64,000 nucleotides of DNA from Nitrospirota bacterium. GTDB taxonomy: Bacteria > Nitrospirota > Thermodesulfovibrionia > Thermodesulfovibrionales > Dissulfurispiraceae. Position 1 is the stretch's first letter, and every line of letters starts with the position of its first letter. Shown one piece after another: positions 32,028 to 48,672 of this stretch. The stretch is from NCBI GenBank assembly GCA_040754455.1, contig JBFMCP010000001.1, positions 215,720 through 279,719 on the forward strand. The letters are read 5' to 3'. The translations under genes and the position numbers were made by a program. The notes under the pieces were generated by a model. It was not told the origin of the DNA and made no database searches. It saw nothing but the letters and a program-made list of their open reading frames with translations.

Positions 32028-32450
32028 TCACAACCACCCTATCCTCTTCTCCGCCTTCAACTCCCGCTCCCGCTCGAAGACGAATGTGGTGATGATGTCT
32101 CTTATTTTTTCATCAACAGAAATCCACTGTAGTGCTACCCTGCGGGTACGGTGAGGGGTGTCGACACGCACGACCTCTCCACAGGCTACAATGATGCCTC
32201 TCTGCGTTTTCAAATGCATCTTAATTTCTATGATATCGCCGAGCGTGTAATGCTCCTCGGTCTCGAAAGCTATTCCCGCGCCGCTGATATCGACTCTTTT
32301 ACGCACCTTGTCATTCAGTGAATGACGGTGGTCGTGCGCGATGACGTGCCAGCGGCACGACTCTTTCTTTTCGGGCGGCACGAAACGGGTCTTCAAAGGG
32401 ATGTCGGCATATACCCTGAAGTACGCTCGTTTGTTTTTCTCGCTCTTCAT
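32028..32450 (-). CDS. Stand-alone PilZ-domain protein
   Basis: RAYFR (RxxxR) and DISGAG (DxSxxG) motifs. Confidence 0.8.
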   Translation of the reverse strand: MKSEKNKRAYFRVYADIPLKTRFVPPEKKESCRWHVIAHDHRHSLNDKVRKRVDISGAGIAFETEEHYTLGDIIEIKMHLKTQRGIIVACGEVVRVDTPHRTRRVALQWISVDEKIRDIITTFVFERERELKAEKRIGWL

Positions 32451-32594
32451 TGCTCCCGCCTTTTTCCGATATACAGTTATACCATAAAGCAGCCTTATGG
32501 TTAAAATCCACTGTAATATTTGCACTTTCTTGACTTTCATAGTATTCTTCTTTTATCTTGTCAGTTGCACTATTTTTCCTGAAAAGGGGGCGCT

Positions 32595-40774: not shown

Positions 40775-41347
40775 TCAGAGGAGTGTTTCTATCTGCTGCA
40801 CGATCTCGGGATCGGTCCAGTCCTGCTCTCCGAAATACTTGTCGACAATAACGCCGTTCTTGTCGATGAGCAGCGAGGTGGGCACCATAAAAACTTTGTA
40901 GAGGGATTTCGATACCGAGAGATTGTAGTCCACCAGCACCGGGAAGTTCATGGGATGCTTCTTGATGAAGTCCTTGACATCCCCTACTGCCCTGTCGGTG
41001 GAGACCGCAAGGATGATGAACTTTTTGTTCTTCATCTGCTGGCTCAGCTTGTTCATCGAGGGGATCTCATCCCTGCAGGGAGGGCACCAGGTGGCCCAGA
41101 AATTGAGCAGCACGACTTTGCCCTTAAATGATGAGAGGGAGACCTGGTAACCATTAAGATCTTTCAACGTAAAATCCGGCGCCTTCTGGCCTGTCGTCTT
41201 CTCGATATCAAAGGGAGAGGGAGGAGCAGCAAGCACGACAGTATTCAGGAGCCAGAATCCAGCAACCAGGATAAAAGCAACAGCAAAAATTGTTTTCTTC
41301 TGGCTTCTGACTTCTGGCTTCTGACTTCTGTTAAATGAGCTTTGCAC
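40775..41347 (-). CDS. TlpA/ResA-family thiol-disulfide oxidoreductase
   Basis: APDFTLKDLNG, LNFWATWCPPC; N-terminal signal or anchor segment. Confidence 0.9.
   Translation of the reverse strand: MQSSFNRSQKPEVRSQKKTIFAVAFILVAGFWLLNTVVLAAPPSPFDIEKTTGQKAPDFTLKDLNGYQVSLSSFKGKVVLLNFWATWCPPCRDEIPSMNKLSQQMKNKKFIILAVSTDRAVGDVKDFIKKHPMNFPVLVDYNLSVSKSLYKVFMVPTSLLIDKNGVIVDKYFGEQDWTDPEIVQQIETLL
41243..41330. repeat. Heptamer tandem / inverted-arm element (AGAAGCC family) encoding the TlpA N-terminus
   Basis: TTCAGGA GCCAGAA TCCAGCA ACCAGGA ... TTCTGGC TTCTGAC TTCTGGC TTCTGAC. Confidence 0.8.
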
Positions 41348-42206
41348 TTTTCAGAACACCTTTCAGTTTATCCTTGTTCGCTGCCGACATCTCGCAGAGC
41401 GGGAGTTTGAATTCTTCCTCGATCTTCCCCATCAACGCAAGCGCCGTCTTCACCGGGATGGGGTTCGTTTCGATGAACATGGCGGCATTCAGGGGCTCGA
41501 GCTTGTAGTGCAGCTCTCTCGCCTTTGCAATGTCGCCGCGCTCCCAGGCGTTATACATTTCTGCAACATCCTTCGGGGCGACATTGGCCGTAACCGATAT
41601 GACGCCTTTGCCGCCGAGGGCGAGGAGCGGCAGCGTGGTAAAATCGTCACCCGAAATAACCGCCAGCCGGTCGCCGCAAAGCCGCAGCACCTCACTCACC
41701 TGCTTCATATCGCCGGTTGCCTCTTTTATGGCGACAATGCTCTCGCAGCATTCAGCGAGGCGTGCAACCGTAGCAGGGAGCATGTTCACCGCGGTCCTGC
41801 CGGGGACATTGTAGAGGACAATCGGGAGCTTCACGTTCTCGGCAATAAGCTTGTAGTGCCTGAACAGACCTTCCTGTGTCGGCTTATTATAGTAGGGAGT
41901 GACCAGCAGGGCGCCGTCGGCGCCGAGCTGCTTCGCCTTTTCGGTAAGGAGAATCGCCTCATCCGTTGCATTGGCGCCGGTGCCGGCGATGACAGGAATG
42001 CGTCTGTTTGCAGCCTTTATCGCCACCTCAATCACCCTGAAGTGCTCATCAAACCCAAGGGTCGAGGCCTCACCAGTAGTCCCGCAGGGGACGATGGCAT
42101 GCGTACCCTGGGCAATGTGCCACTCTATCAGATCACCATATGCTTTTTCATCAAATTTCCCGTTTTTGAACGGTGTTACGATTGCGACAATTGAACCCTT
42201 GAACAT
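41331..42206 (-). CDS. dapA: 4-hydroxy-tetrahydrodipicolinate synthase
   Basis: CGTTGEA, PYYNKPTQEG, LYNVPGRT, IKEATG, ETNPIPVK. Confidence 0.96.
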   Translation of the reverse strand: MFKGSIVAIVTPFKNGKFDEKAYGDLIEWHIAQGTHAIVPCGTTGEASTLGFDEHFRVIEVAIKAANRRIPVIAGTGANATDEAILLTEKAKQLGADGALLVTPYYNKPTQEGLFRHYKLIAENVKLPIVLYNVPGRTAVNMLPATVARLAECCESIVAIKEATGDMKQVSEVLRLCGDRLAVISGDDFTTLPLLALGGKGVISVTANVAPKDVAEMYNAWERGDIAKARELHYKLEPLNAAMFIETNPIPVKTALALMGKIEEEFKLPLCEMSAANKDKLKGVLKSAKLI

Positions 42207-42226
42207 GAATGCCTCCCCGTTACAGT

Positions 42227-43339
42227 TTAGATGAACATAAGTCCCGATCGGTATTTACCTTCTGTCTTATTGCTCCATATGACAACCGCACCTTTGAGCA
42301 TCGAGGGGTTGTCCTTCTTTTTGAAAACGATAATTTCTCCCGGCTTCAGCTCGCTGTCGGTGATGATGCCGATCCCCGATTCGCTGATATCGAGGCAGAT
42401 GCAGGAATACGTAGCGCCTTTCGGCTCGGACTTCTTGACGAATTCGAGCGCGGTCTGGCATGCCCTCCGGGGGTGTCGCCTGTTTTCGGTTTTCTTCTCT
42501 TCGAGGTTGGCAATCCTCCCTTCGAAAACCTCGGTCGCCGGGCCGGTCATATAAATGTGATCATGCTCGGGCCACTCAATGGCAAGATCACCGCCGCGGA
42601 GGTGGATCGTCACTCTCCGCTCGGTCAACCCCTTCACCATCGCTGCCGCTCCCACTGCTGAAGCACCGGTGCCGCAGGCCAGCGTCTCCCCTGCTCCCCG
42701 CTCCCAGACTCTCATGGTCAGCTCCCGCCGGTTTATTACATTCACGAATTCGACGTTCGTCTTGTTGGGGAAGAGGGGATGGCTCTCGATAGCAGGGCCG
42801 TAGACCGTTACAGGAAAATCAGCTATATTTTCATTGAGAAAAACAACGGCGTGGGGATTGCCCATAGAGATGCAGGTTATTCTGAACTCCCTGTCATTCA
42901 CCTTGAGAGGATAGTCGACGATAGGCGCTGCCGCCTTGATGTTGACCGGAATTTTTTCGGCTTCCAGGAGAGGCTCTCCCATATCCACGCGCACCAATTC
43001 TCCCACTCGCTGGGGCCTGATGATCCCGGCAAGGGTATCGATCTTGAGGGTATCTTTGTTGGAGAGCCCCTTGTCCCAGACGTACTTTGCGAGGCACCTG
43101 ATGCCGTTGCCGCACATCTCCACCTCGCTGCCGTCGGCATTGAAGATCTTCATCTTGAAGTCGGCAGCATTTGAATTGAGCAGCAGCAAGAGCTGGTCGG
43201 CGCCGACGCCGAAGCGCCGGTCGCAGAGCCTCTTCGCGAGCTCGGTCATGGTAAAGCGGCTCGAAAGATCCATGTCTCTGGAGTCGATGAGGACAAAATC
43301 ATTGCCGAGGCCGTGCATTTTGGTGAAGGTCAATTCCAT
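42227..43339 (-). CDS. dapF: Diaminopimelate epimerase fused to a C-terminal PilZ domain
   Basis: KMHGLGNDF, EMCGNG, MGNPH, ERGAGETLACGTG; extra ~90 aa with RRHPR and DISESG. Confidence 0.92.
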   Translation of the reverse strand: MELTFTKMHGLGNDFVLIDSRDMDLSSRFTMTELAKRLCDRRFGVGADQLLLLLNSNAADFKMKIFNADGSEVEMCGNGIRCLAKYVWDKGLSNKDTLKIDTLAGIIRPQRVGELVRVDMGEPLLEAEKIPVNIKAAAPIVDYPLKVNDREFRITCISMGNPHAVVFLNENIADFPVTVYGPAIESHPLFPNKTNVEFVNVINRRELTMRVWERGAGETLACGTGASAVGAAAMVKGLTERRVTIHLRGGDLAIEWPEHDHIYMTGPATEVFEGRIANLEEKKTENRRHPRRACQTALEFVKKSEPKGATYSCICLDISESGIGIITDSELKPGEIIVFKKKDNPSMLKGAVVIWSNKTEGKYRSGLMFI

Positions 43340-43345
43340 AATTCT

Positions 43346-44599
43346 TTAGAGCAACTTGGGAATGATTTCGCCTCTTATGAGGTCATTGTATGTCTCTCTT
43401 TTCCTAATGGTAGCATATTTCTTTCCCTTGACCAATACTTCTTCGGCCCTGGGACGGCTGTTGTAGTTCGATGCCATCGTAAAGCCATAGGCTCCCGCAC
43501 TCATCACTGCGAGGAACTCGCCCTGCTGGACGCTCTGGATCTCCCTGTCCTTGGCAAGGAAGTCGCCCGATTCGCAAATGGGACCGACCACGTCGCCAAA
43601 AATCGTATCCTTCCTGTTTTTCAGCACCGGCTGGATGTGGTGGTAGGCATTGTAGATCGAGGGCCGTATGAGGTCGTTCATTCCGGCATCGACAATGATG
43701 AAATCCTTGTCCTCTCCCTTCTTAAGGTAGAGCACCTTGGTGACGAGTATCCCCGCATTGCCGACAATCGACCTGCCCGGCTCGAGAACAAGTGTGACCT
43801 TTCTCCCCTTGACCAGAGGCAGGATACTCTTCGCCAGCTGCGAGGGGATCGGCGGTGTCTCATCGTAATAGGTAATGCCGAGGCCGCCGCCGATATCGAG
43901 ATAGCTGATCTCGATGCCCTGTTTGGTCAGGTCATCAATAAGCGAGAGAATCCTCTTCAGCGCATCGACAAAGGGCGACACCTTGGTGAGCTGCGAGCCG
44001 ATGTGCTTATGGATTCCTACTATCGTGATATTCTTCAGACCCTGAGCAAGTTTGTAGTATTCAAGGGCGTTCTCTATGGGAAGTCCGAATTTGTGTTTCT
44101 TCAGTCCTGTCGAGATATAGGGATGGGTCATGGGATCGATGTCGGGATTGATGCGCAGGGCGACAGGGGCCTTCACCTTCATCTTCCCGGCGATCCGGTC
44201 GATCACCCGCAGCTCGTCCTCGGACTCGACGTTGAACATCAGGATTTTGCTCTTGAGGGCGTACTTTATCTCTTCCTCGGTCTTTCCCACGCCGGCATAG
44301 ACGATCTTTTTGGCGGGGATACCGGATTTCAGCGCCCTGAAAAGCTCCCCGCCGGAGACGACATCAGCACCGCCGCCCATTTTCGAAAAGAGCTTGAGTA
44401 CGGCAGTATTGGAATTGGCCTTGAGGGCGAAACAGGTGATATGGGGGAAGCCGCTGAAGGCCTCTTCATAGGCCTTGAAATGGCGGACGAGGGTATTGTA
44501 GCTATAGATATAAACAGGGGTCCCGACCTTTGCCGCTATTTCGCGTACCGGTACATCTTCTGCATACAACTCGCCGTTCCTGTAGTTGAAAAGATGCAT
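43346..44599 (-). CDS. lysA: Diaminopimelate decarboxylase
   Basis: FALKANSN, DVVSGGE, HKHIGSQ, EPGRSI, GPICESGD, GAYGFTMASNYNSR. Confidence 0.96.
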   Translation of the reverse strand: MHLFNYRNGELYAEDVPVREIAAKVGTPVYIYSYNTLVRHFKAYEEAFSGFPHITCFALKANSNTAVLKLFSKMGGGADVVSGGELFRALKSGIPAKKIVYAGVGKTEEEIKYALKSKILMFNVESEDELRVIDRIAGKMKVKAPVALRINPDIDPMTHPYISTGLKKHKFGLPIENALEYYKLAQGLKNITIVGIHKHIGSQLTKVSPFVDALKRILSLIDDLTKQGIEISYLDIGGGLGITYYDETPPIPSQLAKSILPLVKGRKVTLVLEPGRSIVGNAGILVTKVLYLKKGEDKDFIIVDAGMNDLIRPSIYNAYHHIQPVLKNRKDTIFGDVVGPICESGDFLAKDREIQSVQQGEFLAVMSAGAYGFTMASNYNSRPRAEEVLVKGKKYATIRKRETYNDLIRGEIIPKLL

Positions 44600-46837: not shown

Positions 46838-46910
46838 GGGCCGCTAGCTCAGCTGGTAGAGCAACGCCCTTTTAAGGCGTGGGTCGTTGGTTCGAATCCA
46901 ACGCGGCTCA
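46838..46910 (+). tRNA. tRNA-Lys(TTT); CCA not encoded
   Basis: Cloverleaf GGGCCGC/GCGGCTC, anticodon arm ACGCC-CTTTTAA-GGCGT, T loop GGTTCGAATCC. Confidence 0.95.
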
Positions 46911-47002: not shown

Positions 47003-47077
47003 GTCCCCATCGTCTAGCCCGGCCTAGGACATCGCCCTTTCACGGCGGTAACTGGGGTTCGAATCCCCATGGGGACG
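47003..47077 (+). tRNA. tRNA-Glu(TTC); CCA not encoded
   Basis: GTCCCCA/TGGGGAC acceptor stem, TCGCC-CTTTCAC-GGCGG anticodon arm, GGTTCGAATCC. Confidence 0.95.
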
Positions 47078-47832: not shown

Positions 47833-48564
47833 TCATTTTTGAGCGGCTTTGCTCTTCAATGTTTCAATGATCCTCTTCAGTCCCTGCTGCTTTTCGGCAT
47901 CGAGATCAAGGAGCTTCACCGCATATTTGACATGCTCGGTATCGGGGAATGCCTCTGCCGCCTGTATTCTGATGACAAAGGCTTCGAGCCCGCTTACCGT
48001 CTCCTGAGCCTCCAGCGTTATATCTATTGCCACCCGCTCGAGGATAGCAGGCAGCGGGTTCTTGCTGCTCAGCACGCTCAAAAGACCGCCCAGGCTGAGG
48101 TCGATCATCTTTCCCCGGGCAATGGCATTGCGAAAATGGAAGACAACCTCACCATGCGCTTCGTACCGCTCGAACTCCCTCCGGTCGAAGCGGTCCATGA
48201 TCCCGATAATCTTCTGTGCCAAAGCTTCAGCAGTGAAGGGCTTCACCACATAGCTATTCGCGCCCATCTCGATTGCCTTCAAGACACTCGGCCGGTCGTT
48301 TCGTGAGGTGACCATGATAAAAGGGGTACCGCTCAAGGTAGGATGGCTCCGCACCCATTGCAATATCTGATCTCCCGTAAGGTCAGGCATCTCCCAATCG
48401 CAGAGGATAAGGTCGTAGTCCCCCTGCTCCAGCTTGGACTGGGCCTCCTTACCATTGGTCGCCTCATCGACAATAATGCCCGCAAAGCTCTTTTCGAGCC
48501 CGAACCTGGTGAACTTCCTCATGGATGCGGCATCCTCGGCAATCAGGACTTTAAACTTTTTCAT
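47833..48564 (-). CDS. Response-regulator receiver fused to a PilZ domain
   Basis: VLIAEDA, LILCDWEMP, FIMVT, YVVKPF; RREFER and DLSLGG. Confidence 0.88.
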   Translation of the reverse strand: MKKFKVLIAEDAASMRKFTRFGLEKSFAGIIVDEATNGKEAQSKLEQGDYDLILCDWEMPDLTGDQILQWVRSHPTLSGTPFIMVTSRNDRPSVLKAIEMGANSYVVKPFTAEALAQKIIGIMDRFDRREFERYEAHGEVVFHFRNAIARGKMIDLSLGGLLSVLSSKNPLPAILERVAIDITLEAQETVSGLEAFVIRIQAAEAFPDTEHVKYAVKLLDLDAEKQQGLKRIIETLKSKAAQK

Positions 48565-48672
48565 AGCCCTCAATTATAAAAAAAGTGCTGCTGCTTTTTG
48601 TAGCCCCTTATTGCAGAATATCAATAATGACATATAGACAACGAGAGGTATTATATGATTTAGTTGTAGTAT

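Follow-up and report, generated by a model that had tools for sequence, protein, structure and literature searches.

Upon ligand binding, the RxxxR loop of PilZ proteins folds onto the PilZ barrel, and a C-terminal helix following the barrel is common in the family. The c-di-GMP-binding signature is defined by an RxxxR motif together with a D/NxSxxG motif (PMC11800159). Single-domain PilZ adaptors are known to act on HinK, a chemotaxis methyltransferase or SagS (PMC10912698). A soluble metabolic enzyme under c-di-GMP control has been described in GlgX, and the available text gives the site as the 'C-terminus' (PMC12564702). PilZ receptors covered in the literature, as far as the available text goes, act on exopolysaccharide synthases or on chemotaxis, two-component signalling and transcription.

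Compared with DapA, DapF would be an unusual point of control, being a reversible epimerase. Hor et al. 2013 is said to have found that dimerization of DapF is needed for catalysis. The DapF dimer is formed by a pair of strands, one from each N-terminal domain, and alanine changes at N159, N194, E212 and R213 of C. glutamicum DapF almost abolish activity (PMC5296763). In E. coli, the Y268A/R36A changes break up the DapF dimer (PMC6061855). An initial reading of the DNA made without database searches (the sequence-only reading) knew of no characterised DapF-PilZ enzyme, and a literature search, with supplements outside its reach, likewise gave nothing on a DapF-PilZ fusion or its control by c-di-GMP among the titles and abstract openings listed. 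The available text of bioRxiv 2020.02.11.943704 does not contain the word 'epimerase', and the networks presented there were built for single- and di-domain proteins only.

In the window (the whole stretch of 64,000 nucleotides that was analysed), a dapF-pilZ fusion gene on the minus strand (42227..43339) forms a single ORF of 370 aa without an internal stop. The DapF epimerase part (aa 1-276; 42512..43339, minus), which is assigned from profile, structure and residue matches, is followed by a charged linker of low model confidence (aa 277-286; 42482..42511, minus) and by a short, six-stranded PilZ domain without a C-terminal helix (aa 287-370; 42227..42481, minus), identified from Pfam and a model. 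The fusion lies between lysA, encoding diaminopimelate decarboxylase (43346..44599, minus; TIGR01048, 522 bits), and dapA, encoding 4-hydroxy-tetrahydrodipicolinate synthase (41331..42206, minus; TIGR00674, 378 bits). Only 6 nt separate the lysA end from dapF and 20 nt the dapF end from the dapA start, which bears out the intact lysA-dapF-dapA operon described in the sequence-only reading. A TlpA/ResA-like thioredoxin-fold gene known from profile matches (40775..41347, minus) overlaps the end of dapA, and it adjoins dapA in many relatives too. A promoter and terminator scan gave no minus-strand site, and an Rfam search over the 64-kb window returned two tRNAs only and no riboswitch. Two tRNA genes are located after an aconitase gene (46838-46910 and 47003-47077, plus).

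The epimerase part is complete, as had been claimed. It scores 305.6 bits against TIGR00652 over residues 4-277, where the equivalog cut-off is 114.65, and has the catalytic cysteines C76 (in CGNG) and C222 (in CGTG) at the positions originally reported. Also present are the substrate residues N13, Q49, N67, N78, N161, H163, N195, E213 and R214; the DAP-binding roles of the Asn, Glu and Arg residues among them are taken from the available text of PMC5296763 and mapped by motif. An AlphaFold2 model of the fusion (mean pLDDT 91.6, pTM 0.72) has the two-domain epimerase fold, which Foldseek aligns to 8qzy with an E value of 1e-33, an rmsd of 1.7 A and a target TM of 0.94; identity to 9mro is 52%. 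The last DapF strand (268-276) includes F272, which is the probable counterpart of the E. coli dimer residue Y268 (PMC6061855), an equivalence based on the alignment ends. Two DapF loops, 19-35 and 131-144, are indel hot-spots in the family with up to 41 extra residues, and a DapF of 410 aa in one genome (L032, G025) is part of this loop-indel variation.

The genome is 100% complete and has 24 GGDEF and nine PilZ matches. A DapL-type aminotransferase scores over its cut-off in this genome and meso-DAP dehydrogenase has no match there, so, judging from gene content, meso-DAP appears to be made through DapF alone. MurE of the genome carries a DNPR motif, which we take to be linked to meso-DAP. 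Two other PilZ proteins are encoded in the window, a response regulator receiver joined to a PilZ domain (47833-48573, minus) and a PilZ protein with RxxxR- and DxSxxG-like motifs (32028-32540, minus) which is located after aroA and opposed to its neighbours' direction.

The reading frame continues beyond DapF into the PilZ-like domain just as the sequence-only reading had described, with RRHPR at R287-R291 (42467..42481, minus), DISESG at D317-G322 (42374..42391, minus) and a protein end of GLMFI. These are the RxxxR and D/NxSxxG motifs of the PilZ signature, and PF07238 matches residues 286-369 with 31.7 bits in the full protein and 35.5 bits for the domain alone, above the gathering cut-off of 22.5. 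Both motifs are found in all 16 fused domains, and among separate PilZ proteins RxxxR is present in 24 of 25 and DxSxxG in 21 of 25. In the protein clusters the two motifs occur in 33/33 parsed full-length clusters, and P0019, which the parser missed, shows both by eye. The model of the PilZ domain alone (pLDDT 86.5) is a barrel of six strands with no terminal helix; the domain ends at Pfam position 85 of 102, and the protein stops with the sixth strand. The best structural match among 48,161 chains is PA0012/8u0i with c-di-GMP (Z 12.0, rmsd 1.9 over 80 residues). The c-di-GMP-bound 8u0i chain is equally short (85 residues), so a C-terminal helix is not required there. All nine Foldseek matches at E<=0.001 are PilZ proteins, the top ranks being held by BcsA (4p00), PP4397, VCA0042, YcgR and MrkH. 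The PilZ domain is under purifying selection: dN/dS is 0.14-0.32 for PilZ and 0.11-0.27 for DapF in the same six within-genus pairs, which share sequences, a seventh pair being saturated. The motifs, the selection, the barrel fold and the match to c-di-GMP-bound PA0012 together make it likely that the domain binds c-di-GMP, although this is a prediction from sequence and model. The PilZ subfamily is mostly stand-alone, multi-PilZ or receiver-PilZ, and the DapF fusion accounts for one of the best 150 representatives, 43 of the longer of which were scanned for architecture; a profile search among longer proteins gave five matches only, which is weak evidence. In another member of the subfamily, P0175 (446 aa), the PilZ domain is fused ahead of a methyltransferase domain.

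The sequence-only reading had looked to sequencing reads for confirmation of the junction, and assembled contigs from four independent studies now cross it in frame. Contigs from four of four runs (studies P1, P2, P3 and P5) span 42480-42520 without a stop or indel; these are four of 22 listed runs, with two possible source runs left out, and the sequences are contigs rather than raw reads. In X3 and X4 the interval 41900-43600 lies in one contig, while the contigs in X5 and X7 cover 41900-42845 and 42453-42778, respectively. The substitutions closest to the junction (42512 and 42530) are synonymous by codon reading, and no indel is listed there. The full-length two-domain form is carried by at least 34 protein clusters at 90% identity among the best 120 rows of the protein search, and the fusion is therefore more than a chance event. 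Fused proteins, where they are named in public sources, are called diaminopimelate epimerase, and one is annotated to Dissulfurispiraceae bacterium. A 95-aa NCBI product in the same cluster (P0012; window 42227-42514, minus), which apparently starts at an ATT codon, covers the linker and PilZ domain only, so public annotation may hide the fusion.

Matches to DapF occur in 64 of the 68 genomes of family f1, which is probably Dissulfurispiraceae. Among the 63 family loci classified (G081, split over two contigs, was left out), 12 have the fusion only, three have the fusion and a separate second pilZ, 18 have a separate pilZ and 30 have no intact PilZ. The 15 fused genomes represent six genera. 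A pilZ sequence thus occupies the slot between dapF and dapA at 33 of the 63 loci (15 fused and 18 separate, the latter including the stand-alone pilZ of G016 (L015), which is truncated at its start and lacks RxxxR). Outside the family, a separate pilZ occupies the same slot at four of 14 loci and at six of 20 further loci that were picked by hand rather than at random. Six other families of the order (f2, f6, f8, f11, f12 and f13) have the separate gene in this slot, which is kept even where lysA is not adjacent (G058, G152 and G163). Full-length, stop-free matches to the fusion come from family f1 only, as judged from the best 150 of 252 rows for 301 genomes of the phylum; beyond the phylum, the scope is that of the protein and genome searches named here. 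It follows from this spread of the separate and fused forms that pilZ is an old neighbour here and that the fusion took place at the level of the family. The sequence-only reading had held that a stop and an independent pilZ gene in related genomes would speak against the fusion. Such an arrangement does exist, at 18 of the 63 family loci, but the fusion itself stands. What the separate genes indicate instead is an origin of the fusion in an older gene next door, and such an origin is compatible with a functional link as well as with a mere passenger. The DapF-PilZ fusion is real, under selection and restricted to the family, having grown out of an order-wide dapF-pilZ-dapA arrangement.

In a first PilZ tree, 13 fused domains grouped together (g1, g6, g8 and g19; 99/99) and the g5 and g7 fusions fell among separate ones. 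Separate origins of the fusion, if true, would argue for selection on the link. The case for several independent fusions was weakened, however, since a single clade of all 16 fused domains was not rejected (AU p 0.064) and g5 joined the 13, with weak support, in a tree rebuilt after the truncated G016 row had been removed. On both the LysA+DapF+DapA tree (65 of 79 loci) and the DapF tree (38 of 76 rows), genomes with the fusion are interspersed with genomes that lack it. Remnants of PilZ are visible in several relatives. A sister species in the same genus (G001, L009) retains both ends of the PilZ domain in a remnant that is frameshifted, and G078 (L136) keeps the pilZ 3' end with 92% identity to G019. 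In G027 (L012), a deletion has brought the final codons of pilZ, out of frame, directly behind the dapF end, the tail in G071 (L134) is near-identical to this scar, and in G088 (L135) the start of the linker alone remains. A blastn search of 36 PilZ-less intergenic stretches gave two matches, G078 (E 4e-30) and G029 (L013; E 3e-7), where shuffled controls gave two weak ones (E 6e-3 and 8e-4); the remaining scars were found by pairwise alignment and frame reading. Loss of PilZ through loss of c-di-GMP signalling is ruled out by 29 and 25 GGDEF matches in the scarred genomes G001 and G088, respectively. Any c-di-GMP control is dispensable, because relatives with plenty of c-di-GMP enzymes have repeatedly lost the domain by deletion. 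The PilZ domain is thus selected where it is present, yet dispensable.

The genome has a second DapF-PilZ of 370 aa (G000:C42:6995-8107; L031:6995-8107, minus) that is 59% identical to the main copy and is located between a formate-dehydrogenase-like cluster and hpt-queD-pmbA, with neither dapA nor lysA there. It differs at 23 of 93 conserved columns, N161G, H163Q, N195D, E213G, R214K and G223S among them. Both cysteines and both PilZ motifs are kept, but the DAP-binding Asn/Glu/Arg set, as mapped by motif from the C. glutamicum residues, is not intact; N161, N195, E213 and R214 match N159, N194, E212 and R213 of the C. glutamicum enzyme. Four of the five relatives checked lack the copy between fdh and hpt, and the fifth has no fdh there. 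The cluster P0019, which is 97% identical to the second copy and has three members in other assemblies, keeps E213. In a comparison with the main copy, both domains give a dN/dS of about 0.18 at a dS of about 1.5; relaxed selection on the second copy is possible, because 10 residues differ from P0019, some of them conserved. No relative of the second copy turned up in a scan of metagenomes. Contamination is unlikely, the contig C42, which holds the only hpt and queD matches, being typical in composition (r 0.98). The second copy may serve as a regulatory pseudo-enzyme, may act as an epimerase on another substrate or may be decaying.

The reading we put forward, at a little under an even chance from sequence and model, is that c-di-GMP binding at the PilZ domain tunes an otherwise intact DapF, adjusting the supply of meso-DAP for the cell wall and lysine. 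The fused domain would have been captured from the old operon neighbour, pilZ being found between dapF and dapA across the order. The predicted binding of c-di-GMP would then act close to the dimer, as the first residue of RxxxR lies 15 positions beyond F272, a residue of the strand that would form the DapF dimer interface. If binding holds, there is about an even chance that the RxxxR loop, in folding over, draws the PilZ barrel against the N-terminal domain, altering the stability of the dimer or the closure of the domains. Shortening of the linker tether by c-di-GMP would be the simplest mechanism, with a slight lean towards damping of DapF at high c-di-GMP, and the control would be dispensable fine-tuning, given the repeated loss. 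That the second copy kept its PilZ motifs while losing substrate residues counts in favour of tuning. A fixed docking of PilZ on DapF is not seen in the model, because the linker is its least confident part (pLDDT 61 for 281-290). A comparison of fused and unfused DapF gave no sequence sign of a PilZ-DapF interface. Surface residues that seemed specific to the fusion (D96, E2 and positions 201-202) lost significance once kinship was allowed for, none remaining significant; D96, for example, is found in 13 of 13 fused and 14 of 61 other sequences, with a median p of 1 for independent pairs. The linker has a length of 12 in 26 of 34 cases, but this was rejected as a sign of coupling since control loops are equally or more conserved, five of seven tested DapF segments having no indel at all. 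The fused, separate and deleted states of PilZ suggest a dispensable control of wall precursor supply by c-di-GMP. A broader version is doubtful, namely that a dedicated PilZ receptor in Thermodesulfovibrionales puts meso-DAP synthesis directly under c-di-GMP, mostly as a separate adaptor and, in one family, fused to the dimer-interface strand of DapF, with the catalytically crippled second copy of this species as the sensing regulatory subunit of mixed dimers with the active enzyme.

Several other explanations need to be considered. Loss of a stop codon between two genes through an assembly or sequencing error might be suspected from P0012, which covers the PilZ part alone, and from the two separate genes in many relatives, but is scarcely conceivable for a junction that contigs of four studies cross in frame and a form that recurs in 15 genomes, six genera and at least 34 protein clusters. 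The PilZ barrel could also be a structural or oligomerizing add-on that does not bind c-di-GMP, as its shortness (Pfam 85 of 102, no C-terminal helix) might suggest and as non-binding PilZ families exist (bioRxiv 2020.02.11.943704). This is very improbable given that both motifs are invariant in fused copies while neighbouring columns vary, and that 8u0i, a PilZ protein as short, was solved with c-di-GMP.

Alternatively, pilZ could encode an ordinary adaptor for an unrelated target in motility, pili or transcription, a lost stop having joined it to DapF, where the tail was tolerated. At many loci with a separate pilZ, the dapF stop and the pilZ start are no more than about 10 nt apart, and the fusion therefore needs only a small change. 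The repeated clean losses of pilZ and the absence of a co-varying DapF residue fit this explanation as well, as do the coexistence of a fused and a separate copy in three genomes, as after tandem duplication, and the role of the closest structure, PA0012/TssZ, as an adaptor on a transcription factor (PMC10912698). The same dapF-dapA slot is kept in at least seven families, however, and where a fused and a separate copy coexist (G007, G008 and G070), neither has lost either motif, so that simple redundancy does not describe the fused copy in these genomes. Purifying selection indicates that the domain has some function, without saying which. A passenger is unlikely, if still a serious contender. 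It is also conceivable, though rather improbable, that the target is DapA in the first place, or LysA or MurE, and that DapF, with its own kinetics unchanged, is a tether through which c-di-GMP assembles, places or inhibits a DAP-pathway complex. Single-domain PilZ proteins commonly act through partners (PMC10912698), and E. coli DapF binds the partner RppH (PMC6061855). At this locus type, dapA follows in every pilZ-slot locus with enough downstream DNA, and none of the six of 20 further loci that lack dapA by dapF has pilZ there. Yet DapF is the partner in each of the 16 fusions and DapA in none, and the second copy moved DapF-PilZ to a locus without dapA or lysA. If tuning of DapF is correct, a biofilm (motile-to-sessile) signal would be tied directly to the flux of peptidoglycan and lysine precursors, and the family would offer a natural series of states with pilZ as a separate gene, fused, fused and separate, deleted or in a degenerate duplicate. 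Were the domain a passenger only, the case would still document an operon neighbour that fused to an essential enzyme and was then lost again.

Among described systems, the single-domain PilZ adaptors PA0012/TssZ (8u0i), MapZ and HapZ share the short barrel and the RxxxR and DxSxxG motifs, and the stand-alone pilZ of relatives resembles them. Identity to PA0012 is only 16%, and in the present case the PilZ domain is fused to a metabolic enzyme. An enzyme with a fused c-di-GMP receptor is a known kind of protein; DapF as the partner was not found described. The cellulose synthase BcsA (4p00) is likewise an enzyme with a C-terminal PilZ domain and is controlled in cis, but it makes an exported polysaccharide rather than an amino-acid or peptidoglycan precursor. 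GlgX, whose c-di-GMP site is not known to be a PilZ domain, acts outside amino-acid and peptidoglycan precursor synthesis. DapF of E. coli also takes part in a regulatory protein complex, with RppH (PMC6061855), which differs in consisting of separate proteins and in concerning RNA decay without a second messenger. With known DapF enzymes (TIGR00652, PF01678; PDB 9mro, 8qzy, 4ijz and 5m47), the fusion shares the fold, the cysteines, the substrate residues and the place in lysA-dapF-dapA, and it differs from them in the additional C-terminal PilZ domain, since all 19 matching PDB sequences align no further than query residue 278.
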